Origin: Gammaproteobacteria bacterium
GTDB lineage: Bacteria > Pseudomonadota > Gammaproteobacteria > Thiohalospirales > Thiohalospiraceae
Reading direction: 5' to 3'
Length of the DNA stretch: 64,000 nucleotides
Assembly (NCBI GenBank): GCA_029883105.1
Contig: JAOUJT010000001.1
Span: 3,035 to 67,034, forward strand
The notes below the pieces were generated by a model that had not been told where the DNA came from, ran no database searches, and saw only the letters and a program-made list of their open reading frames with translations. Shown piece after piece: positions 31,275 through 59,686 of this stretch. The position numbers were made by a program, and so were the translations under genes. Position 1 is the first letter of the stretch; every line of letters starts with the position of its first letter.

Positions 31275-32119
31275 AAACTATATCAGATGCAATGCGTGAT
31301 CTCTTACAACGAGAAGCTACTGAGTCATTTCTTCTTGTTGAGATTGGTCCAAATCTAGCCTCTCAGTATTTCAGGTACGTAACACTTCCCTACGACTTTA
31401 CTCATGAAACTAATGTATATTCAGCAAACCATAATATTGTTTCAATGGATGCACCTCGGCTTTCTAACTCTGTCGATAAATCTACCTTCAAAATAACGCT
31501 AAGCGACTCCAACTTTGCAATGCGTCCTTATTTTGACGCCGGTGCTCAGGGTCAACTTTCTGGAATCCCTATCACAGTAAAGGGAGGTTTTGTCAATAAT
31601 ACAGGTCAAATCGAGTATGGAACACCTCCAGGCTTTCCCTATGATGAGTTTTTCATAATATATAGCGGTGATCTTAATGGTGCGAACTACGCAATTACTC
31701 TTGAAGAAGAAGTTATGCTTGTCATTGAAGGTGCATCTCCGATGGCTGCTCTCGATATGTCACGCTCAATGATGATCTCGAAAAGCTATATGTCAAAGAA
31801 ATTCAACGGTGACACCTCTTATGATGAGATATATGAAGGTTCTGACTCTATTAGTCTTGCTTGGGGGATGACTCCAAACAATTCTGTAAAGAAGGCAAGA
31901 CAAGCATCCATGAACGGTGGCACTCTTAAGAAGCTTGTCAAGGTACGTGATGGCCGTGATGGCCGTGGAGATGGTCGTAGTAGTTATTATAGTCCTAACA
32001 CAGGTGGCCATAGTAGTGGTAGTCCAGGCCACGGAAGTGGAGGAGGCGGCAGCGACCGAGGCGGTTCCACTGCAGGTGGTGGTGGTGGTGAAACAGGTGA
32101 TATGGGGAGTTCTTTCTAA
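31271..32119 (+). CDS. minor tail (hub) protein with Gly-rich C-terminal tail
   Basis: 282 aa, overlapping start and stop with its neighbours. C-terminus RDGRDGRGDGRSSYYSPNTGGHSSGSPGHGSGGGGSDRGGSTAGGGGGETG. Confidence 0.5.
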   Translation: MKTISDAMRDLLQREATESFLLVEIGPNLASQYFRYVTLPYDFTHETNVYSANHNIVSMDAPRLSNSVDKSTFKITLSDSNFAMRPYFDAGAQGQLSGIPITVKGGFVNNTGQIEYGTPPGFPYDEFFIIYSGDLNGANYAITLEEEVMLVIEGASPMAALDMSRSMMISKSYMSKKFNGDTSYDEIYEGSDSISLAWGMTPNNSVKKARQASMNGGTLKKLVKVRDGRDGRGDGRSSYYSPNTGGHSSGSPGHGSGGGGSDRGGSTAGGGGGETGDMGSSF

Positions 32120-35100: not shown

Positions 35101-37782
35101 AGCATTTTTGAGTATGATCTGTCGGAACCTTTTGATGTTTCGTCTGCAACTTATACATCGAGAACTATTAGATTCGCAACGACACTAGGAACGTCTCAAT
35201 ACACATCATTAGCCTTATCTCCTGATGGTAGTAAAATATTTGGAAACAATGCCAGTACTAAGAAAATACACTCCTTTAGTTTTGGTACTAACTTTGATAT
35301 CTCAACTCTTACAGAAGATGCAGGCTCTCTTAGTGTGCTTACCCAATTCGGAGCGAATGGCTTTATTAACTATGTAATAAATAGTACAGGAACACGTGTA
35401 TTTGCCCTCCATACATTGTCACCTTTCCGAATACATCAATACAATCTGAGTACTCCTTGGGATCTTTCAACAGGCGTTTACGCAGCTACTTATATAAGTG
35501 CTGTTACAAATACTACACAAGGTCTTGCGATTTCTAGTGACGACACTAAGTTATATGTCGGTGACAATACGACCAAGACTATTTTAGAGCTTTCAATATC
35601 AGCTTCGGGAGATGTCACTACATGTTCTCTCACAGGTGCCGCTACTGATTTCTCGGATACAAATGTATATGTTGTTGATTTTACATTTGCAAATGAAACA
35701 CTGATTGTATGTGGTGCTGCTATCCCCTATTTTATATATCAGTATGCAAGTAGCATTGAGTGGGCGACAGAAGACCCTGGTACTGAAGGTTCTTCGTGGA
35801 TCACTGAAGCATCTTTCTCAAGGATGGGTAGCTATGGAATAAATACTAATACGCCTGCTTATTTAGCGCCTGTCTTAGCGCATAGTCCTGGTACGCAGGT
35901 AACGAAGCAGAGAGTCTATCAGTGGTCAACAGTAGCGCCTACTTTCCTTCCAAATGCCCAGACTACTTATAACTGGCTGAATGGTACACAGGGAAATGCG
36001 ACGAACATGGGCTCATGGACGTTGGGTGTCACAGCCAGTCCAGGAGGCGTCGGTATTAGATTATGGGTTGCTGAGATTTCTACATCAGCCCCGAATGGCA
36101 CAGTCTCTACCACTCTCGCGTGGGATACAGGAAATCCAAATATATACGCAGGTGACATTACAAACTTACCCGATGGTAAGACACAGGTAGTATCTATTTA
36201 CCGATGGGATACAGCTATTCCTACTATTGTAGGTTCCAGTACCTATACCTGGGAAACGGATATCCTTTCTGTAATTCCAACAGGCTGGTCAGATACGATA
36301 CCTGCCACTGTTTCAGGCTATACACTATATGAAGCTCGTATTACACTTGTTGACATAAAAGAGGCTGTCACAACGTCTGTTGATTGGTCTGCTGCTAAAC
36401 GTCTTGCAATCAACTATGCTGGTGGTGAAGGTATTAATGCTCGCCGCGCCTACGTGTCCACCGTTCAAATAAATTCAGATGAGTCATTAGTTCTGAGTTC
36501 CGGTACAGGCTCCCTACCAGATTCTGAGGCCTGGGATTTCACCGGTGTTACTTGGAGCGATACGTTACCTACAGCAGGCGCTGGTGAAGTTGTTTACCAA
36601 TCCGATGGAATGTACGATGAGAATACCACTAATGTGACATGGTCTCCCCCTTATGTTGCTGCTTTTAAAGTAGGTGATCTTAGTGCAATATCTGCTTCGA
36701 TGGGTACCCTGAATGTAACTTCATCACTCACGATGCAAAATTCGGGTGTCATTAAGTCGGAAGATGCTACTTCTCTAGTTGCAGGCGCAGGTCTTTGGAT
36801 GAGCGGTGGAACAAGTGCACAGTCTGAGTTTAGAGTAGGGGACCCAGCTGCTAGCAACTACTTAGCTTGGTCTCCTGCTCTAGGTGTGCAGGCAAGAGGT
36901 GCTGGACTCTCCATAAATGGAGCAGCCGGAGCGATATCTCTCAATGATGAAACCTTTGGAAATAAGGGGGTACAGCTTGAGTATAATGTAGGATCTCCTC
37001 GGATATATATCGGAAATGGCGAGGGTAGTTCTATCAGTTATGAAAATAATGCATTGACACTCGGCGCTGGCGTGCATATAGATGGCGCAGATTCCATATC
37101 AGCTGTTTCCAACTTCTATCGCTCACACGATTGCACTGACACTGTTGGTTGGGGTACTTTCTTAGGTGGACCGACTCTGACCCAGTTTGACTATGGTTGG
37201 AGAGTCACTATACCAAATACTGACACCGCAGAGTTCTGGGTCTACAACACGAGGCTTTTTCTAAATAATACTGCACAATGGGGTAGTGACAGAAAAGTCT
37301 ACTTTGATATAAGCCTCGCGCCTACTCCTACAGAACCTAATCTTCGAATGGAGATTGGCATGGGATATATGCGGACGAATGTCGTATATAGAAACGGAGT
37401 GTGGTTTTCCATAATCTATGATGATACCTCACCGATAGCGGTGCGAGGTGTGTGCTATAGATGGGGTGTTCCTACTTACACAGCAGCTATGCCTTTTGAT
37501 ATCATGGATCCATCGCGCAGTGATCGCATTCAATTTTTCATAGACTACAAGCCCTCGATCAACGTCTGCGACTTCTACATAAATGGTATCTATCAAGATT
37601 CTCTCCCAATGGGTAGCGGAGATAGACCTACTACTGAAAATAGCAGCGAGACATACATGGCCGGTCTTCGGACTTACAATGCAGGAACACTTACAGGACT
37701 TCTGAATCGAAATTTCTTCATTACCCAAATTAAATGGTGGGTTGCACTTACTGGAGGAGCTTTTGCTGGGTACCCTCGTTAA
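32119..37782 (+). CDS. central tail tip / host-specificity protein (lambda gpJ-like) with beta-propeller-like repeats
   Basis: 1887 aa. N-terminal TM, then VYGRAKIGGTRV, typical of J-like proteins. Five repeats of the type SPDGSKIF...F.Y.LS.P.D.S between nt ~35050 and 35760. Confidence 0.8.
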   Translation: MSVIAAVVGLSAYIGGATILTAVMLGASIKYQQYKQQKALDAMEAAADEAKGFEVVTEGEIDSVKLVYGRAKIGGTRVLHRLKSNYVYAAPALGGEVFVTEGDTRLASSVDSVPVLGTIKVISNTTSFNGAVDGTWDSDNETITQLTVSSEISRSSPTGPFTVTTEVGKAAIFGSAYVAVKIGHTPFDTYGDWSVEEGNAEEPIATVFNYRVDSYNNTTGLLTLKFHSATNPEYLSGTRTASLSANKNGSKNEFLFINQVICHKGISAVHSIDIDGRDFRHPDFGASGRIHVYRDGGIGDPMLNANITGQAASLFPETAYASMVFKLNRDEPQYRGIPEVVFYVDGFELSRIDESLGVYTKSSTKYSSNNPVYVLLDYLTAEYGRNLDISKIDLASFHAAAQLCEKQVDAGSLEDIDINGALWNEKVKTTGTRNIKLYECNLVLDTADDFRSNVNKILGSIPEAHFMWSDGTYKISLKYPEVWSAGTWPAGSIVQYETGGVIDLYRSTVSTIEVPGAGVEWETGPDPQLVSAYLTDDDIILENEITMSWPDLSSRLNYCTITFVNESKDFEKDTVSWPNRYGPGLTTVYDTYLAEDNGIELETSKSPHGITTEYHATAYAEMIVRKSRHAHVLGMTVTNEFMYLEPGDVIHLNSTELKVPSEIYLIDSLKVSAQGNIDIQLTKFDARILAWNAKDMEVVSKRSIYSGDLPQVTGLAYTPPAPGKATLTGGNLTWDPSTYKTALKYNAYIAGGPADIQDFNTVWEFLGSSTSNSLTMPPFTPGRYTLTVVAEALSGKVPPVYNLTTGSRWPLLTVDIADSLLGGNQFALTLYKYSTTDLTGTSVEGGSFDFTNHVTTPPVGYYVSEGVARENATDPLQPGDLYVSTAVASVNHPATIDISLAWTALELFDPKTTQKTIKFYARVPAAEPNPSAPSGGSYLFPEGPVTPPSSALASGSYTGKSFSVATQINGSPTDLASAIISVDGLHMYVSNNDGSIFEYDLSEPFDVSSATYTSRTIRFATTLGTSQYTSLALSPDGSKIFGNNASTKKIHSFSFGTNFDISTLTEDAGSLSVLTQFGANGFINYVINSTGTRVFALHTLSPFRIHQYNLSTPWDLSTGVYAATYISAVTNTTQGLAISSDDTKLYVGDNTTKTILELSISASGDVTTCSLTGAATDFSDTNVYVVDFTFANETLIVCGAAIPYFIYQYASSIEWATEDPGTEGSSWITEASFSRMGSYGINTNTPAYLAPVLAHSPGTQVTKQRVYQWSTVAPTFLPNAQTTYNWLNGTQGNATNMGSWTLGVTASPGGVGIRLWVAEISTSAPNGTVSTTLAWDTGNPNIYAGDITNLPDGKTQVVSIYRWDTAIPTIVGSSTYTWETDILSVIPTGWSDTIPATVSGYTLYEARITLVDIKEAVTTSVDWSAAKRLAINYAGGEGINARRAYVSTVQINSDESLVLSSGTGSLPDSEAWDFTGVTWSDTLPTAGAGEVVYQSDGMYDENTTNVTWSPPYVAAFKVGDLSAISASMGTLNVTSSLTMQNSGVIKSEDATSLVAGAGLWMSGGTSAQSEFRVGDPAASNYLAWSPALGVQARGAGLSINGAAGAISLNDETFGNKGVQLEYNVGSPRIYIGNGEGSSISYENNALTLGAGVHIDGADSISAVSNFYRSHDCTDTVGWGTFLGGPTLTQFDYGWRVTIPNTDTAEFWVYNTRLFLNNTAQWGSDRKVYFDISLAPTPTEPNLRMEIGMGYMRTNVVYRNGVWFSIIYDDTSPIAVRGVCYRWGVPTYTAAMPFDIMDPSRSDRIQFFIDYKPSINVCDFYINGIYQDSLPMGSGDRPTTENSSETYMAGLRTYNAGTLTGLLNRNFFITQIKWWVALTGGAFAGYPR

Positions 37783-41481: not shown

Positions 41482-41547
41482 TAAAATTTATAGTGGGTCT
41501 ATATTTGATATCGTTAATCCCAAAGGTTATTGAGAAAATTGAAAGCT

Positions 41548-43803
41548 ATGATAAAACAAAAGATAATTCTGACAACAACAAAAAGGATAGCAAAGGAAAT
41601 TGCACCACAAAACCCCCTAATATATCTAAAAGAACATGATGTCGAAAAGTATATTAATGAATTAATCTCGACAGTCTATCTGTTCACACGCCCTAAGAAG
41701 GGTTCATCGGACCCTCTCTATATGGTTGAAATTATATCGGCTATCGGACATCGGGTCAGAGGAAAGTTAGGACTTAGAAAAGACTCAGCGTTAGCAGCTA
41801 AAACAGGAGCGTTTCTTTTATATACATTCGAAGTACTTAATATCATCCATGTTATCCTTGGAGCTGGTAGACGTGGACATAATGCGTACATTGTAGATGT
41901 TTTGGACGATGCTACGATAAATGAACTATGGAAGGAGCTAGGTGACCGCGAGATCGAGAAGTTACCTGCGCTACAGCCGCATCAGGATTGGAAGCATTCA
42001 AGGCATCCTACAGGAATGCTTATGGTAAAAACAGGATGTAAAGAGACACTTGAATCACTAACACCTCAAACACATCCTATCGTCTTCAACGTCCTGAACA
42101 GAGCTCAACAAGTAGGTTGGCGAATAAATACGGAGATTCATCACTTACAACAATGGGCACTAAAGTACAAAACAGTCGCCTTTGCAGATATATGGGAACA
42201 ACAAAACCCTGAAGCGCGTGCTACAAAATTAAGAGAGGCTCGATCTATTGACTCGATTGCGAGTAAATACCTAGGGACAACCTTCTATCATCTCTATTAC
42301 TATGACTTCAGAGGTCGTAAGTATGCAGCCACTGCTTATCTACACGAACAAGGAAGTGATGTAGCGAAAGGTCTCTTGCTCAGAGATGATAAGAAGCGAA
42401 TAGGAAAAGAAGGATTTTTCTGGCTACTTGTGAGTATCGCCTCTAACTGGGGCGGTGAGAGTGGTCGTGAAGATGGATTGAAAACAGATAAAATACCTCT
42501 TGAAGAAAGGTATCAATGGGCGCTCGCAAATGAGGATATTTTATTGTCCTACGCGAAATCACCTAAAGTGAATCAGGGATGGATGAAAGCTGATAAGCCC
42601 TGGCAATTTATAGCAGCGTGTTTTGAGCTAAGGTCTTGTTACCGATGGGCTAAGTATGACCATACTAAGCATGATCACCTAAAGGAGGAAATCTATGAAT
42701 ATGAGTCTCATCTTGAGTGCTTTATTGATGGTAGTAACAATGGCTCTCAGCATCTATGTGCGCTTACACGCGACGAAGTTACGGCTCCTCACGTTAATCT
42801 TGTGCCACTTGATTATCCTGGGGACCTCTATAAATATGTTGCAGATCATGTTTGGGACAGCTTAGAGGCTCAAGTTAATCTCCTGACAGAAGCTGAAGTT
42901 GAAATTTGTGAAAAGTTCATAGATGATCTGGTCGTGCACAAAAAGCGAATAAACAGTGCGCCCCGTGGTAGCGAAATCAAAAGGCTCCTTGTGGATAAGA
43001 TACGAAAGTTTAAGGAGGAACATGGACTTTTAATGGTGCTTGTAGCTCCTGTATTTTGGTTTAGAATCCAGGATGCTAAGGAGAAACGTAAGATTGTGAA
43101 GAGAAACACAATGACGCTTCCCTATGGCGGAACACCCTATGGACTTGGACAACAGATCATTGATGATGCTAAGAAACATGGGATTGAACAACTCCTATAT
43201 ATGGAACATAGCTGGGGCGCTTTCTTAGGAAGAGAAGTATTTAAAAACTGCCAGGAAGCTCTTAAACGACCTATGCAACTCCTTGATATCTTTGAGAAGG
43301 CAGGGAAGCTAGCAGAAGCCGAAGAGAGATTCTTAAAATGGACTGTACCAATAACAAACTTCCCGGTAGTGCAGCACTACACGGAAGGTCGTGTGAAGAA
43401 GATATGGGTTCAGTACGGACCGCCTAAAGGAACCAGAAATTCAACAGGTTACTTTACAAACACCTTACAATTGCATATTTGCTTTGTAGAAGATCCACAA
43501 CCATCGAAGCGCAAACAAGCACAGGGAGCTTCTCCTAATGCCATTCACAGCCTAGATGCAGCACACTTAATGCTTACAGTAGATGAGGCACCTTTTCCAA
43601 TAACAACTGTTCATGATTCTTTTGGATGTTTGTTAGCTGATATGCCTGAACTGTACAAACTAATACGTGAAACATTCGTAGAACTCCATGAGGTCAATCC
43701 ACTCTATTCATTGTTTGAACAGATAGGAGGCGACATCTCAGACGTTGATCTGGGGAATCTTGATATCAATTTGATACTTGATTCAGAATATTGTTTTTCA
43801 TAG
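41548..43803 (+). CDS. T7-like single-subunit DNA-dependent RNA polymerase
   Basis: YYDFRGRKY...EQGSDVAKGLL (42304-), motif A IDGSNNGSQH (42727-), motif B KRNTMTLPYGG (43099-), motif C TVHDSFG (43609-43626). ATG at 41548 preferred; TTG at 41530 is possible. Confidence 0.9.
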   Translation: MIKQKIILTTTKRIAKEIAPQNPLIYLKEHDVEKYINELISTVYLFTRPKKGSSDPLYMVEIISAIGHRVRGKLGLRKDSALAAKTGAFLLYTFEVLNIIHVILGAGRRGHNAYIVDVLDDATINELWKELGDREIEKLPALQPHQDWKHSRHPTGMLMVKTGCKETLESLTPQTHPIVFNVLNRAQQVGWRINTEIHHLQQWALKYKTVAFADIWEQQNPEARATKLREARSIDSIASKYLGTTFYHLYYYDFRGRKYAATAYLHEQGSDVAKGLLLRDDKKRIGKEGFFWLLVSIASNWGGESGREDGLKTDKIPLEERYQWALANEDILLSYAKSPKVNQGWMKADKPWQFIAACFELRSCYRWAKYDHTKHDHLKEEIYEYESHLECFIDGSNNGSQHLCALTRDEVTAPHVNLVPLDYPGDLYKYVADHVWDSLEAQVNLLTEAEVEICEKFIDDLVVHKKRINSAPRGSEIKRLLVDKIRKFKEEHGLLMVLVAPVFWFRIQDAKEKRKIVKRNTMTLPYGGTPYGLGQQIIDDAKKHGIEQLLYMEHSWGAFLGREVFKNCQEALKRPMQLLDIFEKAGKLAEAEERFLKWTVPITNFPVVQHYTEGRVKKIWVQYGPPKGTRNSTGYFTNTLQLHICFVEDPQPSKRKQAQGASPNAIHSLDAAHLMLTVDEAPFPITTVHDSFGCLLADMPELYKLIRETFVELHEVNPLYSLFEQIGGDISDVDLGNLDINLILDSEYCFS

Positions 43804-45917: not shown

Positions 45918-46097
45918 ATGATCAGTGACGACAGAAAAGCTTTTGAAGAATGGATACAGAAACCGCCTTATGAGGAAAATACTCCGAGATACACAGAAAA
46001 GGATAGCTGGCCTGGTCAATACCAGAGTATCAATGTGCAACTCGCATGGGAGGCTTGGCAAGCGGGTCAAAACTTAGGACATGCAGGAGAAAACTAA
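45918..46097 (+). CDS. hypothetical protein (59 aa)
   Basis: ATG at 45918, 5 nt after AGGAGG. TAATG overlap with the DNA polymerase start. Confidence 0.5.
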   Translation: MISDDRKAFEEWIQKPPYEENTPRYTEKDSWPGQYQSINVQLAWEAWQAGQNLGHAGEN

Positions 46098-48103
46098 TGT
46101 TCAGACTGGTTTTTGATATTGAAGGCGATGGGTTCCTAAGAGATGTAACACGGATGTGGACGATCATTATCCATAACTTAACCACAGGCGAGCGCGTGGA
46201 ATTCCTTGAGAATGACCTAGGCTGGCAGGATTATTTTAATAATAATGTGGGGATTGTAGTTGGGCATAACATTTTAGGATATGATGTTCCTGTCCTAGAA
46301 AAACTCTTTGGGTATAAATTCCCAAAAGAAACTCAATTTCATGACACGCTTTTGATGTCACAGATTCTTGACTACCGGCGATTCGGCTACCAAGGGCACT
46401 CACTAGCGGTGTGGGGTAAATCACTAAATTATCCAAAAATTGACTTCCACGACTTCTCAAAATGGACTCCTGAGATGTCTAAGTATTGTCACCAAGACGT
46501 AAATCTTAACGTTGAGGTGTATAAAATTCTAATACAAGAATATTATGATTTGTTTGACAAACTTGAGAAAGATGAGGGAACAGGTCATAGAATAAAAACA
46601 TTTCTTCAGGCTGAACATGCTGCCACTACTTGGCAAGCTCAGGCTGAATTGCACGGCTGGCCCTTCGACAAAGAAGGAGCTATTGAACTCTTCGGTAAGT
46701 TAGAGGAGGAACTGACTGAAATTCGGGATAAATTAGAAGGAGTCTTAGGCTCAAAGTCAATTGCAATCGACAAGGTAAAAGGAATTGTGCCTCACAAAGA
46801 ACCTAAGTGGGTTGCTACAGGGTACTATCATGCACATACTGCGCAGTGGTTTGGTATCGATCCTCGCTGCGGTTCTGATCTTTCTACAAAAGAGGCTCGT
46901 ATGATCATAGCCTCCGGCGAATATGAGGAGGAAGATGAAATAATGAAGATGGCTCAGGCTATCCTGACGCATGGTGAGCGACCGATTACAGGCCCGTATT
47001 GTAGAGTAGACTTCCAGAAACTAAAGTTAAGCTCTGTCGCAGATGTTAAAATTTATCTATATCGACATGGATGGGAACCCTCCGAATGGAACACTAAATG
47101 GAATCCTGCTACTAAAAAGAATGAAAACACTTCACCTAAAATCATTGATGACGATCTCGATCTTTTAGGCGAAAACGGAAGGTTGTATCGAGCCTTTACA
47201 ACAGCAGAATCTCGATACAGTATAGTAAAAACATGGATTGAAAACGTTGATGACAATGGAATGCTTCATGGAAACTCAAGGATGATAGGAACGCCGAGTA
47301 TGCGCGCTACACACCAGATCATTGTAAATGTACCCTCTGGAGAGCTTAAGGATGATGGAACTCCTGTTAGTAAATGGGGTCCTGAGATGAGAGCCTTGTT
47401 TAGGTCAAAGCCAGGCTGGAAATGCATAGGATGTGATTCAAAAGGCAACCAGGCGCGAGGTCTCGCACACTATCTAGGAGATCAGGAGTTTATAGACGTA
47501 ATCCTGCACGGTGATATTCATGCATACAACGCCGTTAAATTAACCGAAGCATTGTCGAAGATGGGTGTACAGCACACGGTACCAAGAAGTGCCGCAAAGA
47601 GAATCCTGTATGCCTTCCTATTTGGAGCTTCAGGTAAGAAGCTGTGGAGCTATATATTTGGCACCTTCAATGCAACTAAAGGAAATAAGTTAAAAAAGGA
47701 GTTTATTAAAGCAGTACCTGGGTTTGAAGACCTTAACAAAAAGCTGGAGAATATCTATGGAAGCACCTCAAAGTTTGGATACGGCTACATTCCTTCAATG
47801 GTTGGTAATAGAATTTATGTTGATTCTTTTCATAAACTTCTTGTATATTTACTACAATCCCTTGAAAAGATTACATGTAGCACTGCGGTTATGCTCACTA
47901 TGCAGCGTCTGGAGGAAGAAAGTATTCCATACATCCCTCTCATCTACTATCATGATGAGGAGGATTTCATGGTACCAGAAGAATTTGCAGAACGTGCAGC
48001 TGAAATAGGTTCAGGCGCCTTCAAGGATGCGGCGCTCCTATATGATATCAAAATAATGGATGGTGATGCAAAGATCGGCGACAGCTGGCTAGATATTCAT
48101 TAA
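46097..48103 (+). CDS. family A DNA polymerase with 3'-5' exonuclease domain
   Basis: Exo motifs FDIEGDGF, GHNILGYDVPVL, YCHQDVNL. Polymerase motifs CDSKGNQARGLAH (A), RSAAKRILYAFLFGAS (B), YYHDEEDF (C). Confidence 0.9.
   Translation: MFRLVFDIEGDGFLRDVTRMWTIIIHNLTTGERVEFLENDLGWQDYFNNNVGIVVGHNILGYDVPVLEKLFGYKFPKETQFHDTLLMSQILDYRRFGYQGHSLAVWGKSLNYPKIDFHDFSKWTPEMSKYCHQDVNLNVEVYKILIQEYYDLFDKLEKDEGTGHRIKTFLQAEHAATTWQAQAELHGWPFDKEGAIELFGKLEEELTEIRDKLEGVLGSKSIAIDKVKGIVPHKEPKWVATGYYHAHTAQWFGIDPRCGSDLSTKEARMIIASGEYEEEDEIMKMAQAILTHGERPITGPYCRVDFQKLKLSSVADVKIYLYRHGWEPSEWNTKWNPATKKNENTSPKIIDDDLDLLGENGRLYRAFTTAESRYSIVKTWIENVDDNGMLHGNSRMIGTPSMRATHQIIVNVPSGELKDDGTPVSKWGPEMRALFRSKPGWKCIGCDSKGNQARGLAHYLGDQEFIDVILHGDIHAYNAVKLTEALSKMGVQHTVPRSAAKRILYAFLFGASGKKLWSYIFGTFNATKGNKLKKEFIKAVPGFEDLNKKLENIYGSTSKFGYGYIPSMVGNRIYVDSFHKLLVYLLQSLEKITCSTAVMLTMQRLEEESIPYIPLIYYHDEEDFMVPEEFAERAAEIGSGAFKDAALLYDIKIMDGDAKIGDSWLDIH
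47532..47545 (+). promoter_or_regulatory. intragenic copy of the class-1 motif (CCGTTAAATTAACC)
   Basis: Exact 14-mer of the intergenic class-1 motif, inside the DNA polymerase ORF in the same orientation. Confidence 0.3.
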
Positions 48104-48144
48104 TCTAGGGAAACTAAATTTGAACCTTTTTAACAGGACATTTT

Positions 48145-48393
48145 GTGGCTAAATTTAAAAAAGTACGCAAGGCTCGACTTTTCAGGGCACTTGCAATAAA
48201 ACTTACGATGATGCGATCGTACAAGCACATGTACCCAGCACCTATGCGTCTCAAGCTCATTGAAGCGATAAATGAGTTAGGGAACTCGGGACATCGTATT
48301 CGTATGGACCTCTATCGAAAGCTCACTGAGCCAGTTCTCAAAGATGAGTTTTACAGGCCTCTCCGCGTGGCGTACCACAAGCGCGGGCGTTAA
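48145..48393 (+). CDS. small basic hypothetical protein
   Basis: 82-aa ORF with GTG start; Arg/Lys-rich. Confidence 0.45.
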   Translation: MAKFKKVRKARLFRALAIKLTMMRSYKHMYPAPMRLKLIEAINELGNSGHRIRMDLYRKLTEPVLKDEFYRPLRVAYHKRGR

Positions 48394-48454
48394 ATCCAAC
48401 AGTTCGTATAAAAGTTGGTCACACTCCAGGTATGCTCTGGAATTGTGTAAGAAG

Positions 48455-48488
48455 CTATCGCTAGCAACGATGCCGGAAAAGTAACCGT
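48455..48488 (+). promoter_or_regulatory. class-2 conserved motif, extended form (CTATCGCTAGCAACGATGCCGGAAAAGTAACCGT)
   Basis: 30/34 identical to 53336-53369. The core is shared with 45344 and 48668. Confidence 0.55.
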
Positions 48489-48667
48489 GCTTTTAACCAG
48501 GAAACTATTTGGAGGAAATAATATGCCTGAATAATAAGTAACTGCAACGAAGTGCAGCTCTCTAAAACAAATACTACTAGCTAGCATAGGGCGCAATCCA
48601 CAGGGGATATCTATGCAGAAACACCTACCAAAAATCTCATGCGATGTCTAGAAAATCCCGCGCTGAC

Positions 48668-48687
48668 ATCCCGGATAACGTAACCGG
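48668..48687 (+). promoter_or_regulatory. class-2 conserved motif (ATCCCGGATAACGTAACCGG)
   Basis: Core motif with a one-nt longer spacer. Lies 36 nt upstream of the 48723 start codon. Confidence 0.5.
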
Positions 48688-48722
48688 GGCTAATCAATTA
48701 TACAATCCGTATGGAGAGCATT

Positions 48723-49478
48723 ATGGCTGAAAATGTAGATGATGGCGGCTTTTCGTCAATTCTATCAAATAACAGAGAGAGGATGGATGAAATATCAACT
48801 CTCAAAAATAGCAAGGTAACAGGAAAGGCTCGCAATGTTGGGTTCGGCATTATTCTTATTGGGATTCTCCTAATGTTTATTGTCTTTGCAGCCCAAATTA
48901 TCACAGGAATGTTTGCTCTGGTTCTTACACTAGTTGTAAGTGTCGGCGGGTTTCTGGGACTCCGGTGGTTGAAAACAATGGATCCTCTCATTCGACAGAA
49001 GACATTGAATATGCGCCTGGAGAAGATGATAGGAGAAGCCAGGGAGAGGGCGATGGAGCAGTTGCAGAATCAGGTGATGAAGAATGCTGATCGTCTGGCA
49101 AATGCGAAGGAAGCGATTATTAAAGTAGGAGCACTTATTAATAAGATGGAAAGTAAAATAAATCCTGCCGACGCTGGCTCTGCAAAGCACACTAAAAAGC
49201 TTAAAATGAAAGCAAAGATAGAAGAAGCTCACGATGCTATGAAACAAAACTATGTAGCAGCGCAGGACGCCGATCTTGCCTTTAAAGCAAAAGTACATGA
49301 GTACCGTGAAATGGATGAATTTGCAGATATCGTTTCAGACGCACAGTCTATAATGAATTCAGCAGCAGACGGTGAGCTGGAAGAACTTCTATCACTGGAA
49401 GCTTTCGGACAGATCGAAACTAACTTTCATACTGCGGTAAGCTCTTTAGAAGCTTCTGCACTAGAATTTAAAGGGTAA
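48723..49478 (+). CDS. membrane-anchored coiled-coil protein
   Basis: ATG at 48723 after GGAGAG. Two TM helices (FGIILIGILLMFIVFAAQIITGMFALVLTLVVSVGGFLGL), then a long helical charged domain. Confidence 0.55.
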   Translation: MAENVDDGGFSSILSNNRERMDEISTLKNSKVTGKARNVGFGIILIGILLMFIVFAAQIITGMFALVLTLVVSVGGFLGLRWLKTMDPLIRQKTLNMRLEKMIGEARERAMEQLQNQVMKNADRLANAKEAIIKVGALINKMESKINPADAGSAKHTKKLKMKAKIEEAHDAMKQNYVAAQDADLAFKAKVHEYREMDEFADIVSDAQSIMNSAADGELEELLSLEAFGQIETNFHTAVSSLEASALEFKG

Positions 49479-49481
49479 CAC

Positions 49482-49634
49482 ATGGGTAAGTCAACAGATA
49501 TTCAATCATCTACACGTTGGATGTTGATCATCATTGGAATAGGTCTGGCGGCAATTGTGCTGGTAGGGCTCTCTAATGCATTTATCGGCGGATCATCTTC
49601 GCCATCCTCTTCAACTGAAGAACCATTGTTCTAA
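49482..49634 (+). CDS. small single-TM protein (50 aa, below ORF-track cutoff)
   Basis: MGKSTDIQSSTRWMLIIIGIGLAAIVLVGLSNAFIGGSSSPSSSTEEPLF. Tightly spaced between neighbouring genes. Confidence 0.45.
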   Translation: MGKSTDIQSSTRWMLIIIGIGLAAIVLVGLSNAFIGGSSSPSSSTEEPLF

Positions 49635-49643
49635 GGTATTACT

Positions 49644-50591
49644 ATGAAAAAATCAAGAAAAATGTTAACAGCATTCTGTGTAGCAGCGATGCTTATTGCG
49701 AATGTTCATGCAGGACAAACACTCCGTATCGGTACAGGTTCTGAAGCCGGTACATATTTCCCTCTAGGAAACGATATCAAGGATTTCTGTGGAGGTGCTA
49801 CAAGCAAGGAACTCGATGTACAGGTCAGTGGCGGCGCCATTGATAACTTGTTGGGACTCATCGAAAAGAGATACGATGCAGGTATTGTTCAGATCGATGT
49901 GTTGAAGTTTTATGAAACAAAAATAATGCCAACAAAAGTGAATGAAAACAGACTCAAGGTTGTAATGGGACTGCACGCTGAGTCGGGACACCTTCTGATT
50001 CCAAAAGGCTATAAACCATCAGGAGGCGGCTTTGGGAGTCTTCTTTCTAGCATAGGCGAAAATATTGGCGTCAATGATAAGAAAGGTATTAGTATCGATC
50101 TTATCAAAGGTCAAGAAGTAGCCGCCTGGGGAGGGAGCACGCTTAGTTTAAAGGCTTTAAGTTCTTTCCTGAAACTAGGAGTCAAGCCTGTTGATATAAA
50201 GAAAGGTCAGGCTGTGAATATGCCGATTCTTGTTATTGAAGGACAGCCTAGTTCTGTTGTACAGGGATACCTTGACAGTGGTAAATATACGTTGGTCCCG
50301 ATAGATCCTACAAGCGTGTCATCTGTTGCGCCTTTTTACTCTGCAACAACATTGACGTATATGTCAAAGGGCAAACAGTTCTCTGTGAAATCTTTTGCAG
50401 TGCGGGCTGTCTTAATAGGGAAGGCTTCAAGGAAAGCCGAAAGGAATGTAGCGTTCTCTGAACTAGCGACATGCCTCTCTAGTAGTTTAGAGGACCTTGC
50501 AGACGATTCAGCTACAAACCCGAATTGGGAAACGATCTTCGAACTTGTAGATGAAGGTCAAATCAATTGGGGCTATTTCCCACTCCTTTAG
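49644..50591 (+). CDS. periplasmic solute-binding protein, TAXI (TRAP-associated) family-like
   Basis: Signal peptide MKKSRKMLTAFCVAAMLIANVHA|G, then TLRIGTGSEAGTYFPLGNDI, which matches the TAXI N-terminal signature (l.igTGg.gGtYyp.G). Confidence 0.6.
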   Translation: MKKSRKMLTAFCVAAMLIANVHAGQTLRIGTGSEAGTYFPLGNDIKDFCGGATSKELDVQVSGGAIDNLLGLIEKRYDAGIVQIDVLKFYETKIMPTKVNENRLKVVMGLHAESGHLLIPKGYKPSGGGFGSLLSSIGENIGVNDKKGISIDLIKGQEVAAWGGSTLSLKALSSFLKLGVKPVDIKKGQAVNMPILVIEGQPSSVVQGYLDSGKYTLVPIDPTSVSSVAPFYSATTLTYMSKGKQFSVKSFAVRAVLIGKASRKAERNVAFSELATCLSSSLEDLADDSATNPNWETIFELVDEGQINWGYFPLL

Positions 50592-50606
50592 AAAACATAA
50601 CTACGG

Positions 50607-50636
50607 AGAGCCGCTGATAAGGGCGGCTCTTTCTTT
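50607..50636 (+). terminator. rho-independent terminator
   Basis: AGAGCCGC-N8-GCGGCTCT followed by TTCTTT. Confidence 0.75.
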
Positions 50637-50657
50637 AATAAATCATTGAGAAATAAA

Positions 50658-50978
50658 ATGGCTGAATATTTAGATGAACACGTGGATTTACTAATGATAA
50701 CTTTCGGAACACAAGAAGGTATCTTTAAGGATGGTATCCCGAAATTGATCAAGGCAATTGTAGCAAACAATCCTGCGTGGTTTGTTGGTCCTGCTCTTCT
50801 TATACACTACTCATGGGTGCCGGTAATCAAGGATAGAATTAGTACAGAAGGAGGGCGTATCTTCTTCGACGGTATGCAAATGATACCTACTGAGCAGGTT
50901 GAGGAATTTACAATAGCGCTTGTTGATGCAGGGACGGTATCGGAAGAGCCATCAGAAAACCCTAAGGAGCACCATTGA
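50658..50978 (+). CDS. hypothetical protein
   Basis: ATG at 50658; 106 aa. Confidence 0.5.
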   Translation: MAEYLDEHVDLLMITFGTQEGIFKDGIPKLIKAIVANNPAWFVGPALLIHYSWVPVIKDRISTEGGRIFFDGMQMIPTEQVEEFTIALVDAGTVSEEPSENPKEHH

Positions 50979-53288: not shown

Positions 53289-53335
53289 GTCGGGGTTGGT
53301 TGCACTTGTGTCTGCGGACAAGTAATATTATAAAA

Positions 53336-53369
53336 CTATCGCTCGCATCGATCCCGGAAAAGTAACCGG
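53336..53369 (+). promoter_or_regulatory. class-2 conserved motif, extended form (CTATCGCTCGCATCGATCCCGGAAAAGTAACCGG)
   Basis: 30/34 identical to 48455-48488. Lies in a 366-nt non-coding gap. Confidence 0.55.
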
Positions 53370-53578
53370 AGTCTCTGACTTAGAGACAGACCACGTCCTA
53401 ATAAAATGGGAGAATAAAATGTGAATCAGGGGAGGACTGCGGCCTAGATGTCCGTAGATAGCCGTTTTTAAGATAGTAGGCGAACAATAAAAACAAGAGA
53501 CCTGTTGAGGTTTCGATAATATGACTTCGAGTCTGCAGCAACTAGGCAGATCAAGTACGTATTTTCAACTGTGAAAGA

Positions 53579-55781: not shown

Positions 55782-56023
55782 TGTTTCAATTTATTGTACA
55801 CAAGCTGCTAGCTCTCACAGCAGTTGTAATAATGTTCAGCCAAGGGTTTTCGGCTTTTCAGGCCGGTCTTGAAATAGGGTTCAGCGAAATAGATCGACTG
55901 GATTGGTTGTTTCTGGCTATCTCAGCGGTAATGATATCCGCTATGTCTGAGCCACCTAAAAAGGGAGGTGTTGAGGGTGAGCCACCTAAAAAGGGAGGTG
56001 TTGAGGGTAAGCCAAATGAGTAA
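55781..56023 (+). CDS. small membrane protein with duplicated EPPKKGGVEG C-terminus
   Basis: Two TM segments. The C-terminus is encoded by a perfect 2 x 30-nt tandem repeat. Overlaps the primase start by 8 nt. Confidence 0.5.
   Translation: MFQFIVHKLLALTAVVIMFSQGFSAFQAGLEIGFSEIDRLDWLFLAISAVMISAMSEPPKKGGVEGEPPKKGGVEGKPNE
55949..56008 (+). repeat. perfect tandem direct repeat, 2 x 30 nt
   Basis: GAGCCACCTAAAAAGGGAGGTGTTGAGGGT occurs twice back to back. Confidence 0.95.
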
Positions 56024-57707
56024 TATCGTCCTGAAGAACCAGCCGTGTGTAGATACCGAGGGCTGTGGATCGAGTGACGCCTTGCAAATCTATGAAGCAG
56101 GGGACGGCTTTTGTTTCTCCTGTAGTAAGAAGTTTAAGAAAGAAGAAATAGCGGGAGCCTCTACAGGGGTGGTGTTCAAAAAGAAACCTTCAAATCAAAT
56201 GATTAAATGGGACCCTGACGAGGAACTCGAAAAAGTAAAGGATTATCCCATCAGAGGTTTCGTGGAGCGAAATATCAATAAACCTATTACAACCTTCTAT
56301 GGAGTAAAGGTGTCGTATAACGGTGACGGTGATATAAATAAACATTACTATCCGTATGACGGAGGTCTTGCATACCACGTCAGAAAGGTATTACCTGACA
56401 AAGACTTCTTCTGGATAAAAGAGTCGAAAAGTCTCTTCGGTAAGGAGTTATTCAATCCCGGAGGAAAACGACTCGTAATCTGTGAAGGTGAAATTGACAC
56501 AATGGCTGTGGCAAAAGCATCTTATGAGAAATATGGAAAATTCTACCCTGTCATTGGTATTGCAGGATCTTCTATGACAGAAGCTCTTCTAGAAGCGCGC
56601 GATTGGATACGCTCGTTTCAGGAAGTTATTATATGTTTTGACGAGGATGAGCCTGGTCAAAAAGCTGTCTCAAAAGCCCTTAAAATCATAGGGCTTGATA
56701 AGGCAAAAATTACACGCCTTCCTGAGAATGATGCAGGCGCTGTATTGTTAGAACACGGTCACAAGGCCTTAATGCAATGTATTTTTGATGCAGCCTCTTT
56801 TGTACCGTCAGGATTTATTACCAAAGAAGCTCTTTGGGACTCTTTGGTTGAGTATAACTCAAAAGTTTCCACACCTTATCCCTTCTGTATTAATTCACTT
56901 AATGAGAAACTTAAAGGGCGTAGAGGAGGTGATATTGCATTATTTATTTCTGGAACAGGTTCAGGAAAGAGTACCCTGATCCGAGAGATAGGATTAGATA
57001 TAATTCAAAACTCAGATGAGAAGATAGGAATTGTAAATCTTGAAGAGTCTCCTCATGAGACTGCCCGAAAATTTGCAGGAATGGCTCTTATGAGAAATCC
57101 TGCTGATGAAGAGATTCCTATCGATGAGTTGAAGCCAGGCTTTGATGAAGTGTTTGGAGATGATAGATGCCTTGTATTAGATCATCAAGGCTCCATGAAT
57201 GATAGTTCAATCATTGATAAACTTGAATATATGGCACTGTCAGGGTACACCAGTATCTTTATTGACCATATCACAATTCTAGTCTCAGAAGGAGTTGAGA
57301 ATCTAACAGGCAACGAGGCTCAGGACAAAGTAATGAATGACCTATTGAGGCTTGTCAAGCGATATCCAGATGTTTGGATAGGTCTTGTAAGTCATCTAAG
57401 GAAAGTACCTGGTGGTACTGTGTCATTTGAAGAAGGCAAGATGCCTACAATGGATGATATTCGAGGCTCTGGCTCAATAAAGCAGGTATCAATGGATATT
57501 ATTGCTTTCGCCAGAAATATGGTAGCTGAGACCGTTGAGGAAAGAAATAGAATTGATATGAGAGTGCTCAAATGTCGCTTTACAGGGCTTACTGGTGATG
57601 TAGACCCTGCATTCTATGACTTCCCAACTGGAAGGCTTACAGCTGATGTTCCAGATATCCCCGAGAAAGAGGAAACATCAGAACAAACTGAGTTTACAAA
57701 GGTTTAA
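56016..57707 (+). CDS. bifunctional primase-helicase (T7 gp4-like)
   Basis: Zinc-binding CVDTEGCGSSDA...GFCFSCSKKF, TOPRIM VICEGEIDTMAV...CFDEDEPG, Walker A ISGTGSGKST, Walker B IFIDHI. Confidence 0.9.
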   Translation: MSNIVLKNQPCVDTEGCGSSDALQIYEAGDGFCFSCSKKFKKEEIAGASTGVVFKKKPSNQMIKWDPDEELEKVKDYPIRGFVERNINKPITTFYGVKVSYNGDGDINKHYYPYDGGLAYHVRKVLPDKDFFWIKESKSLFGKELFNPGGKRLVICEGEIDTMAVAKASYEKYGKFYPVIGIAGSSMTEALLEARDWIRSFQEVIICFDEDEPGQKAVSKALKIIGLDKAKITRLPENDAGAVLLEHGHKALMQCIFDAASFVPSGFITKEALWDSLVEYNSKVSTPYPFCINSLNEKLKGRRGGDIALFISGTGSGKSTLIREIGLDIIQNSDEKIGIVNLEESPHETARKFAGMALMRNPADEEIPIDELKPGFDEVFGDDRCLVLDHQGSMNDSSIIDKLEYMALSGYTSIFIDHITILVSEGVENLTGNEAQDKVMNDLLRLVKRYPDVWIGLVSHLRKVPGGTVSFEEGKMPTMDDIRGSGSIKQVSMDIIAFARNMVAETVEERNRIDMRVLKCRFTGLTGDVDPAFYDFPTGRLTADVPDIPEKEETSEQTEFTKV

Positions 57708-57712
57708 AATAA

Positions 57713-59686
57713 ATGATAACAGTTGAAGATCTACCCGAAATTGATACCCCTTGGAGCACTGTGGGGTACCTAACATTTAAGAGAACTTACGCTCGTAAGT
57801 TTGAAGACATATCAGAAGAAGAGGCCGATGAGTCCCTTCTTGACATGAACGCCCCTACAGAAGAATTCGAAGACACGGTCGTTCGCGTAATTAACGGATG
57901 CGATAAGCAATTCGGTTGCGGATTTACGCAAGAAGAAGAGATACGTCTTGCTACATATTTCTTGGAGTTAAAGGCAAGTGTAGCGGGTAGAATGTGGTGG
58001 CAGGCTGGTACAAAGACAGTCGATAAATATGGATTAGCATCGATGCAGAATTGTGCATTCACAGTAGTGGATCACCCTATAAGACCCTTTACATGGTGTA
58101 TGGATATGCTGGCAGTAGGGGCAGGTGTTGGGTATAATATTCAACAGAAACATGTAGATAAAATACCTGCAGTAAAGGAGTGGTTTGAAGCTCCTACACG
58201 ATTTGATGATGGCGGCGCTGACTTCATTGTCCCCGACTCACGTGAAGGCTGGGTAAGACTATTAGGGAAAACCCTGAAGGCGGCATTTCTGTCACACTCA
58301 GAAGAAAAAGGAACATTCACTTATTCAACGCAAGTAATACGTGGGAAGGGGACACCTATTAAAGGGTTCGGTGGTACAGCCAGTGGTCCTGAAGACCTTG
58401 TATGGGGAATTGGAGAAATTAGCAAAATCCTCAGTAAAAGAAAAGGAGCGCGTATACGGCCTATAGACGCTCTTGATATCATGAACATCATCGGCTACAT
58501 CATTGTGGCTGGGAATGTACGGAGATCAGCTCAAATTGCGATAGGTGACCCTGATGATGTTGAATTCCTCCTTGCAAAGAGGTGGGACCTAGATGACGTA
58601 ATGATTCCGAAATGGAGAAGTATGTCAAATAATAGTGTAGCTTGTAGCGATATTGACGATCTACACCCTTTCTTTTGGGAAGGCTATTCTGGCAATGGAG
58701 AGCCATATGGTCTGATCAATCTCCCATTGTCACGAGGTTGCGGTCGATTGGGTGAGACTCAGTATCCTGACCCCAAGGTTGAGGGCTACAACCCGTGTGC
58801 GGAGCAGTCGCTTGAGCCTTACGAGACATGTTGTCTTGCAGAGGTATTTCTTCCGAATGTAGAATCAAAGGAAGAATTGATGGATATTACAAAGTTGTTA
58901 TATCGTATCAATAAGCATTCACTGATGTTACCTTCGCACCATCCAGAAACCACGGAAGTTGTACATAGAAATCTACGGATGGGAATAGGGTTGACAGGTA
59001 TTATGCAAGCCCTACCTGAGCAGCTCGAATGGCTTGATGACGTCTATAGTGAGCTTCGACGATTCGATGAGTATTATTCAAAGAAAAACAATCTGTCAAA
59101 GTCTATAAAGTTGACAACAATAAAACCTAGCGGCACACTCTCGCTACTACCTGGAGTTACTCCCGGAGCACATCCAGGGTATGCTCGTTTTATGTACAGA
59201 CGTATCAGCATTGGTGCTGATAATTCACTCGTAAAGGTCTGTAAGGATCACGGATATCCTATTGAGTTTAAAAGGAACATGGATGGCACAGAAGACTACG
59301 GAACTGTCATCGTTACATTTCCTTTTAAGTTTCCTTCGCATGCAATACTTGCGGACGATGTTGACGTAATTCAGCAGTTAAAGACAGTTAAGCTGTTACA
59401 GACTGTATGGTCTGATAACAGTGTCTCCTGCTCAATATATTACAACAAGGATGACGTACCACGAATAAAGGAATATTTAAAAGAAAACTATAGAAACTGC
59501 CACAAAAGTCTCTCCTTTCTATTACAGAGAGGGCATGGTTTTGACCAGGCTCCTTACGAGGAAATCTCTGAGGAGACCTATAATAAACTTGCAGCAGAGA
59601 CCCAACCGATCTCTAATATTAGCTCCGTCGGGAGTTTGGATATCGGTGACGAAGAATGCGAAGGGGGTGCTTGTCCCATTCGTTGA
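57713..59686 (+). CDS. nrdJ: ribonucleotide reductase, class II (adenosylcobalamin-dependent)-like
   Basis: Active-site block YNPCAEQSLEPYETCCLAEVFL and C-terminal Cys pair CEGGAC. Single 657-aa chain; no beta-subunit gene seen in the window. Confidence 0.7.
   Translation: MITVEDLPEIDTPWSTVGYLTFKRTYARKFEDISEEEADESLLDMNAPTEEFEDTVVRVINGCDKQFGCGFTQEEEIRLATYFLELKASVAGRMWWQAGTKTVDKYGLASMQNCAFTVVDHPIRPFTWCMDMLAVGAGVGYNIQQKHVDKIPAVKEWFEAPTRFDDGGADFIVPDSREGWVRLLGKTLKAAFLSHSEEKGTFTYSTQVIRGKGTPIKGFGGTASGPEDLVWGIGEISKILSKRKGARIRPIDALDIMNIIGYIIVAGNVRRSAQIAIGDPDDVEFLLAKRWDLDDVMIPKWRSMSNNSVACSDIDDLHPFFWEGYSGNGEPYGLINLPLSRGCGRLGETQYPDPKVEGYNPCAEQSLEPYETCCLAEVFLPNVESKEELMDITKLLYRINKHSLMLPSHHPETTEVVHRNLRMGIGLTGIMQALPEQLEWLDDVYSELRRFDEYYSKKNNLSKSIKLTTIKPSGTLSLLPGVTPGAHPGYARFMYRRISIGADNSLVKVCKDHGYPIEFKRNMDGTEDYGTVIVTFPFKFPSHAILADDVDVIQQLKTVKLLQTVWSDNSVSCSIYYNKDDVPRIKEYLKENYRNCHKSLSFLLQRGHGFDQAPYEEISEETYNKLAAETQPISNISSVGSLDIGDEECEGGACPIR

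Follow-up and report, generated by a model that had tools for sequence, protein, structure and literature searches.

What use could a phage make of a periplasmic binding protein that is encoded without a permease beside it? The question is raised by a window of 64,000 nucleotides (the whole stretch of DNA that was analysed; assembly GCA_029883105.1, contig JAOUJT010000001.1, positions 3,035 to 67,034), in which a cassette of three co-directional open reading frames (ORFs) lies within the replication block of a tailed phage, between a repeated element and a terminator. The ORFs, here called g1, g2 and g3 (Table 1), encode in that order a predicted inner-membrane protein with a long coiled coil, a membrane microprotein and a secreted ligand-binding protein of the TAXI fold. 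To our knowledge, TAXI-family binding proteins are understood only as feeders of TRAP-type carriers. In phages and bacteria that are only distantly connected, the three genes were found to be linked near-obligately, and their products are proposed to constitute a self-contained, transporter-independent, ligand-responsive three-part inner-membrane complex, or envelope device, a reading to which we give a probability of about 0.5. It is the most economical reading because the linkage is near-obligate, the genes are tightly spaced and the topologies of the products are complementary. The structure predictions behind it are of single chains.

The TAXI-fold binding protein g3

The three ORFs were present as the initial annotation had described them, and both features that it attributed to g3, namely a signal peptide and a TAXI-type N-terminal block, were seen. 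The signal peptide, as read from the sequence, comprises residues 1–23, with an n-region of MKKSRK, a hydrophobic core and a predicted cleavage site at which VHA is followed by G; the N-terminal block is TLRIGTGSEAGTYFPLGNDI. In the structural model a helix at residues 3–22 is set apart from the fold. A pair of cysteines (C49 and C277) is invariant in the g3 family, which fits a periplasmic protein. Taken together, the signal sequence, the detached N-terminal helix and the cysteine pair point to export of g3 to the periplasm.

A profile search and a structure prediction had been suggested as checks on the TAXI assignment. The former gave 30.8 bits against NMT1_3 of Pfam (PF16868), which passes the cut-off of 27, and 47.7 bits against TIGR02122, which is below the cut-off of 84.35 and covers only the N-terminal third of the protein. 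TIGR02122 was matched by all eight close relatives (best E 1.9e-15). Among the PHROGs, g3 matches phrog_6856, a group of unassigned function. A profile built from 37 sequences of the g3 family matched the PDB entries 4ddd (E 1.7e-15) and 1us4 (6e-12), as well as 8u79, 8s4j, 9ibo and 9oz4. The model produced by AlphaFold2 (AF2), with a predicted local distance difference test score (pLDDT) of 92 and a predicted TM-score (pTM) of 0.87, has the two-lobed Venus-flytrap fold of the TAXI type. Ranks 1–7 of a Foldseek comparison with this model were all TAXI proteins (4ddd, 1us4, 9ibo, 8u79, 8s4j, 9ibp), with E from 3e-16 to 8e-13, and other solute-binding protein or LysR folds appeared from E 1e-8 on, five to seven orders of magnitude behind. 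It is concluded that g3 truly belongs among the periplasmic binding proteins of the TAXI fold, albeit as a divergent member.

In VcGluP, the TAXI protein of Vibrio cholerae, Y45, Q93 and E125 bind the amino group of the ligand; H123 and G203 lie close by, and neither Arg nor Lys takes part (PMC11574862). A hidden Markov model (HMM) alignment pairs these five residues with Y38, Q83, E113, H111 and G200 of g3, which are invariant or nearly so across 24 trios, including the copies of Ralstonia and Achromobacter phages that are ~25% identical. The g3 family appears to retain the pocket positions of VcGluP (Y45, S75, Q93, H123, E125 and G203), an assignment made by HMM alignment with no bound-ligand structure behind it. 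Because the TAXI pocket residues are kept, g3 looks ligand-competent and is predicted still to bind a small ligand that bears an amino group. The family also has a C-terminal block that is conserved (DLADDxxTNPNW...W.YFP) and that was not seen in the aligned parts of canonical TAXI proteins.

A DctQ/M-type permease was found neither beside the cassette in the window nor recurring beside any homologous cassette examined, in agreement with the earlier remark that no TRAP permease accompanies these genes. The partnership with a fused DctQM permease that characterizes TRAP systems was thus lacking for g3 in these contexts. Having no permease partner and scoring below the curated cut-off, g3 fails the operational definition of a TRAP subunit.

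Linkage and distribution of the three genes

A search of GenBank phages for near-identical DNA with the cassette region gave no match. At the protein level, tblastn with g3 identified homologues in the Vibrio phages phiTY18, SRILMA, TDDLMA, Va1, K406, K354, K408 and RYC, in the Ralstonia jumbo phages RP12, RP31, FLC4-3B, FLC1-1B and RsoM2USA, and in Achromobacter phage Motura. Genes of ~250 aa and ~45–56 aa stood directly ahead of the g3 homologue in six of the seven phage records inspected, with completely different flanks; RsoM2USA departs from the usual trio in having genes of 308, 122 and 300 aa. The trio was also present on metagenomic phage contigs of 31 to 301 kb, T4-like and jumbo phages included, and at 12 chromosomal sites in marine Gammaproteobacteria, the carriers being Pokkaliibacter, Vibrio nigripulchritudo, V. 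owensii, V. xiamenensis, V. viridaestus, Enterovibrio, Grimontia, Motilimonas, two Marinobacterium species and a Saccharospirillaceae genome. Across these contexts the typical gene order is ~250 aa, 45–60 aa and 300–335 aa. Pattern scans of IMG/VR, which are insensitive, returned one contig.

When the flanking ORFs of 26 loci were compared all against all, g1 and g3 were the only genes common to every locus (g2 being below the size cut-off of the comparison), and neither a permease nor a fourth common gene emerged. A homologous small ORF was present at the g2 position in nearly all loci, and distant relatives of g1 (E ~1e-9 to 1e-15) still stood in the trio arrangement. The genes are closely packed, with gaps of 3 nt between g1 and g2 and 9 nt between g2 and g3 in the window, and with overlapping start and stop codons within the trio in RP12, Motura, FLC4-3B and a further phage locus, L012. 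Such packing speaks for co-expression. Given this near-obligate linkage across phages and bacteria, g1 and g2 are likely partners of g3. It was also observed that the three genes of the window share one reading frame (48711-50591), with TAA stops and 3 or 9 nt between them; this common frame is probably coincidental, since other trios have overlapping start and stop codons and different frames.

All the deepest lineages of the g3 tree belong to phages. The bacterial copies fall within one marine crown clade, where they are interspersed with phage copies and branch in disagreement with the species phylogeny. This pattern indicates horizontal exchange, the direction of which was probably outward from phages. 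Housekeeping or metabolic genes account for most of the 81 ORFs around the 12 bacterial copies, the copies being isolated insertions far from transport operons; no phage hallmark family was among the matches listed, and no defence-island or prophage pattern was seen. The label of a moron or auxiliary module, as used in the initial annotation, fits such a patchy and mobile distribution. The picture of an orphan binding protein that accompanied the label found no support, since g1 and g2 are likely partners of g3. Roles in sequestration or exclusion, which the annotation also raised, are conceivable.

The window sits on a 74-kb contig that was binned into a 3.0-Mb metagenome-assembled genome, and it is this binning that assigns the putative host. 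Elsewhere in its genome, the host encodes a canonical TAXI binding protein adjoining a fused TRAP permease. With such a pair available and the TAXI pocket kept in g3, the phage gene might be regarded as an auxiliary metabolic gene whose product hands a ligand to a TAXI-TRAP or GltS-type permease and so boosts uptake by the infected host, in the manner of cyanophage PstS and the Pst system of its host; g1 and g2 would then be unrelated or mere helpers. The use of more than one type of membrane partner by TAXI proteins, as indicated by a report on a TAXI-GltS system (PMC12344293), would suit this explanation. However, g3 and the host TAXI protein have no relation beyond the fold (BLAST E 0.13), g3 is under the TIGR02122 cut-off, and a permease was never adjacent in the contexts examined. 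The near-obligate linkage to g1 and g2 is, moreover, maintained across Vibrio, Ralstonia and Achromobacter hosts and in bacteria, where the copies lie apart from transport operons. The linkage data and the lack of similarity to the host binding protein disfavour a role in host transport, which is considered improbable, and the earlier suggestion of an orphan protein plugging into a host transporter among incidental neighbours was not upheld. Judging from the comparison with the host TAXI protein and from the phage nature of all the deepest branches, g3 does not appear to be a captured host gene.

Several further observations were made at individual loci. The 'ABC transporter subunits' by the trio of RP12 were considered as a partner and rejected, being a separate, partial ABC system that is absent from the related phage FLC4-3B; in RP12, a ModA-like binding protein (SBP_bac_11) and an ABC permease follow right after the TAXI-like gene (L004:4912-6437). 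A small secreted protein of ~85–90 aa, with a signal peptide, a conserved xRAYxF motif and two cysteines, is encoded near the trio in four marine phage loci (L002:3795-4067, L011:8988-9251, L012:6803-7057 and L014:4274-4531; pairwise E 1e-9 to 5e-20). Its gene is directly upstream of g1 in two of these, whereas the third has it directly downstream of g3 and the fourth ~1 kb upstream; the window lacks it. It may represent an optional fourth periplasmic component. The trio often stands beside other auxiliary metabolism genes, although without a consistent partner: a NadR-like gene and a gene for the nicotinamide mononucleotide transporter PnuC lie directly upstream on a 161-kb phage contig (L011:5221-6995), Vibrio phage RYC has genes for phosphoribosyl pyrophosphate synthetase and nicotinate phosphoribosyltransferase downstream (L003:6422-9399), and Motura has those for homospermidine and glutathionylspermidine synthases, likewise downstream (L006:4998-7823). 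Such neighbours could hint at the ligand of g3. A few ORFs flanking bacterial trios (L008-L024) match the models mad1, mad2, mad3 and mad8 of the MADS defence system (best E 5e-53), with one or two ORFs per model. One locus of cellular setting, with NusA and pyrophosphatase genes upstream, was the sole context in which the TAXI gene was missing; it encodes a 294-aa g1 homologue and a 41-aa ORF followed, after a gap of 229 nt, by an unrelated secretion ATPase of the PilB/MshE type (L041:3712-6154).

The membrane proteins and the proposed complex

The most likely start of g1 is at 48723, as this start is preceded by a Shine-Dalgarno sequence (GGAGAG) and agrees with a 251-aa database entry (P0056). 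Hydropathy places two adjacent transmembrane (TM) segments at about residues 40–88 of the 255-aa form, and the positive charges on both sides of this hairpin indicate an N-in/C-in topology. The AF2 model (pLDDT 83) is helical (H11-28, H35-58, H62-108, H110-145, H154-222 and H227-250), with the second TM helix reaching far into the cytoplasm (its end is at about residue 145, and it is kinked near residue 109), a 69-residue helix returning toward the membrane, and a final conserved helix. The predicted layout is one of an N-terminal cytoplasmic helix, a TM hairpin, a long antiparallel cytoplasmic coiled-coil hairpin (~90–100 Å, as estimated from helix lengths) and a conserved C-terminal helix.

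The g1 family comprises 267 clusters at 50% identity, nearly all of ~250 aa, and is most conserved in a juxtamembrane helix (DPxxxQKxxN...EA) and in the C-terminal helix (LxxMLSLEAFxxIExxF). Only P88, N96, A106 and L223 are nearly invariant across the broad family, all of them cytoplasmic, and no TM residue is conserved; the close family has an invariant Q58/G62 motif at the periplasmic turn of the hairpin. With conservation in the cytoplasmic parts, an output by signalling or scaffolding is more likely than a pore with a conserved lining. This bears on the possibility of a new minimal binding-protein-dependent transporter or channel, in which oligomers of g1 (two TM helices) and g2 (one TM helix) would form a conduit and g3 would deliver or gate the substrate. 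Systems that depend on a binding protein normally end in a membrane translocator, and ionotropic glutamate receptors use the fold of g3 as their ligand-binding core (1us4 is entitled 'putative GluR0 ligand binding core' in the PDB); the Q58/G62 motif would also be in keeping with a conduit. However, a pair of g1 and g2 offers three TM helices only, the TM sequence of g2 is not conserved, and no similarity of g1 to any transporter or channel fold was detected in the PDB or BFVD, so that a conduit of this type is quite improbable.

No relatives of g1 outside its own family were found in Pfam, PDB sequences, PDB folds or BFVD viral folds, and its profile gave only chance coiled-coil matches to PDB sequences (E of at least 0.025). 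NCBIfam and PHROGs yielded nothing significant for g1, nor did they or Pfam for g2. A relationship of g1 to PspA/IM30/ESCRT-III was tried and rejected, as hhalign of a 67-sequence g1 profile against bona fide PspA gave a probability of 0.4% and PspA_IM30 was not among the best 25 of the 32 Pfam families matched by the 67 members. These results also count against a role in membrane-stress maintenance, in which g1 would be an anchored PspA/ESCRT-III-like coiled coil stabilising the inner membrane late in infection, with g2 as anchor and g3 as sensor. Vipp1/PspA are among the weak fold matches of g1 (E 0.25–0.5, TM-scores 0.26–0.40), and huge phages have been reported to carry pspA (bioRxiv 10.64898/2026.10.24.761521). 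A PspA_IM30 gene was also missing from the binned host and 12 genomes of its family (0/13), compared with 9/14 control genomes. However, the fold matches are non-significant and of the kind that any long helical hairpin yields, and such a maintenance role is regarded as highly improbable.

Weak matches to two-TM holin and SLATT families were obtained as well. Phage_holin_3_6 matched five of the 67 g1 members (best E 3.8e-4) and SLATT_1 matched one (3.7e-4), in all cases under the gathering scores and restricted to the TM hairpin, where composition alone can give such scores. They would be in line with superinfection exclusion or envelope defence, whereby the complex stops the incoming DNA or the tape-measure protein of a superinfecting phage, or else detects a periplasmic sign of attack upon which g1 perturbs the membrane; the bacterial copies would be domesticated defence genes. 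Known exclusion proteins are small membrane or periplasmic proteins, e.g., Imm and Sp of T4. All three parts of the trio are likewise envelope-located, and their distribution is patchy and horizontally mobile with deep lineages in phages. However, PADLOC-DB v2 gave no significant match for g1, g2 or g3 of the window, Pokkaliibacter or RP12, and the flanks of the 12 bacterial copies have the housekeeping character described above, with neither a defence-island nor a prophage pattern. In addition to the holin and SLATT matches being below significance, the conserved small-molecule pocket argues for ligand binding and not for simple steric blocking. Of the alternative biological roles, exclusion or defence ranks as the most plausible, although we consider it rather unlikely.

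The microprotein g2 has one TM segment by hydropathy, a basic N-terminus and a Ser/Thr/Gly-rich tail ending in ...EEPLF. As its positive charges lie solely before the TM segment, an N-in/C-out orientation is predicted from the positive-inside rule. The sequence of the tail drifts freely and is unalignable between relatives. Even so, 23 of 26 copies carry an aromatic residue among their last three, compared with 6.8% aromatic residues in the rest of the tail, and the end commonly reads -ESPF, typically in bacterial copies. The idea that the carboxylate of the terminal Phe acts as a tethered ligand in the g3 pocket was weakened and is unlikely, because residues follow the Phe in some copies, the deepest lineages lack it, and what the conserved residues of the pocket bind is a free amino group.

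In the proposed three-part complex, g3 would be exported as a disulfide-stabilised Venus-flytrap receptor of the TAXI type and would bind a small periplasmic molecule with an amino group and probably a carboxylate too. The flexible Ser/Thr-rich periplasmic tail of g2 would hold g3 at the membrane surface by means of the conserved aromatic or hydrophobic patch at its end; a contact between g3 and g1 would need such a tether, because g1 exposes almost nothing to the periplasm. As membrane base and output, g1 would place its TM hairpin beside the TM segment of g2 and its coiled-coil hairpin in the cytoplasm. Closure of g3 on the ligand would then alter the packing or oligomeric state of g1 and g2, by which a periplasmic chemical cue would cross the membrane. 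We infer that g1, g2 and g3 touch one another, and likewise infer the nature of the ligand and the cytoplasmic action of g1, be it as scaffold, signal or membrane perturbation.

A number of observations weigh against such a complex. First, g1 has no enzymatic or known signalling domain, with no match to MCPsignal or HAMP of Pfam and with the chemoreceptor 2ch7 appearing in Foldseek at just E 1.1. The terminal aromatic residue of g2 is not universal, as the deepest lineages end in IVLSH or IIIR and some copies have one or two residues beyond the Phe. The TM-scores of g3 to TAXI structures are just 0.55–0.62, which may reflect open versus closed states or real divergence, and the equivalent of S75 of VcGluP is Ala in the g3 of the window, although it is Ser in most relatives. 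Finally, locus L041 has g1 and the 41-aa ORF but no TAXI gene.

Tentatively, the proposal can be taken one step further. The trio could represent a class of periplasmic receptor that has so far escaped notice, one that is split, independent of transporters and phage-derived, in which the TAXI head senses an amino-acid-like molecule and switches the oligomeric or conformational state of g1 via the microprotein tether. Possible ligands of such a receptor are a free amino acid or a peptidoglycan-derived fragment common to the periplasm of Vibrio, Ralstonia and Achromobacter.

Genomic setting, known systems and significance

The view of the cassette as a self-contained transcription unit was supported. 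The strong terminator noted after g3 has an 11-bp GC-rich stem with a folding energy of -18.8 kcal/mol (z = -4.88), and none of 200 shuffled sequences folds as well. Upstream, the 'class-2' motif of the initial annotation turned out to be a real repeated element of ~45 nt, of which three copies were confirmed at 48455 and 48668 in the leader (spanning ~48440-48490 and ~48640-48690) and at 53336 (53322-53372). Their alignment has a mean column identity of 78% with the core GAT(G/C)CCGGA(A/T)AA(C)GTAACCG. The element may be a promoter or an RNA element, both being candidates. An Rfam scan of 48100-50800 found nothing, and the fold of the whole leader is unexceptional (z = -1.1).

The window derives from a tailed, siphovirus-type phage of ~74 kb with T7-like RNA polymerases, and its credible genes are all on the plus strand. 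The 1539-aa ORF for the fused head protein (Table 1) combines a head-morphogenesis domain of the MuF/SPP1 gp7 type (residues 2–408) with a T7-like RNA polymerase region (~856–1089). In the structural region, a 1887-aa ORF (32119-37782) was without a PHROG match at E <= 1e-5.

Table 1. Positions of the cassette and of other features in the 64,000-nt window.
Feature	Position	Strand	Remarks
MuF-type head protein fused to RNA polymerase	12968-17587	+	
Tape-measure protein	22824-30545	+	
Second T7-like RNA polymerase	41530-43803	+	
PolA	46046-48103	+	upstream of cassette
Untranslated leader before g1	48394-48722	+	329 nt; no credible ORF inside
g1	48723-49478	+	251-aa predicted inner-membrane protein; alternative start 48711 (255-aa form)
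g2	49482-49634	+	50-aa predicted single-pass membrane peptide
g3	49644-50591	+	315-aa predicted secreted, divergent TAXI-fold ligand-binding protein
Intrinsic terminator closing cassette	50605-50640	+	hairpin 50605-50632, then UUCUUU
Primase-helicase	55968-57707	+	downstream of cassette
Ribonucleotide reductase (RNR)	57713-59686	+	downstream of cassette

The trio was not found described in a literature search that covered phage TAXI modules as well as exclusion or defence systems that include binding proteins. The nearest known systems are compared here in turn. With the TAXI-TRAP systems (VcGluP-VcGluQM of V. cholerae, 8S4J/9IBO; TtGluBP of Thermus thermophilus, 1US4/8U79), g3 shares the Venus-flytrap fold and the N-terminal GTGxxxGxY, as well as the Tyr, Gln, His and Glu residues with which VcGluP binds the amino group of glutamate. 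However, it differs from them in having no linked DctQM-type permease, in its score below the TIGR02122 cut-off and in the invariant Cys pair and DLADDxxTNPNW...W.YFP block of its own clade. It is near-constantly accompanied by a two-TM coiled-coil protein and a microprotein, which are absent from TAXI-TRAP operons.

The PstS proteins of cyanophages, which are encoded by auxiliary metabolic genes, resemble g3 as phage-encoded, secreted type-II periplasmic binding proteins without a permease of their own. Cyanophage PstS is closely homologous to its host counterpart and works with the PstCAB of the host. In contrast, g3 is unrelated in sequence to the host TAXI protein and travels with two membrane partners. 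In LuxP-LuxQ, TorT-TorS and pairs of binding proteins and chemoreceptors, a periplasmic flytrap reports its ligand to a membrane protein with a cytoplasmic helical hairpin, an arrangement similar to the one proposed here, although g1 lacks a kinase, HAMP or MCP signalling domain. A TAXI protein that works with a non-TRAP membrane partner is described for the TAXI-GltS system of Bordetella pertussis (PMC12344293). The partner in that system is a full multi-pass secondary carrier, whereas g1 and g2 have three TM helices in total.

The analysis thus describes a well-conserved clade of the TAXI fold that has a microprotein and a two-TM coiled-coil protein as its constant partners, occurs in many large phages with differing hosts and has moved into marine bacteria. 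It provides the 'hypothetical' genes of Vibrio phages SRILMA, Va1, K406 and RYC, Ralstonia phage RP12 and Achromobacter phage Motura with a testable hypothesis. If the trio forms a ligand-responsive complex, it would offer viruses a new means of sensing chemical conditions in the host periplasm, and its minimal architecture would be new for transmembrane signalling. If the split-receptor proposal is true, large phages and the bacteria that received the genes would gain a ligand-gated change of membrane state or a cytoplasmic signal, which could serve, for example, in the timing of lysis or the exclusion of competitors.

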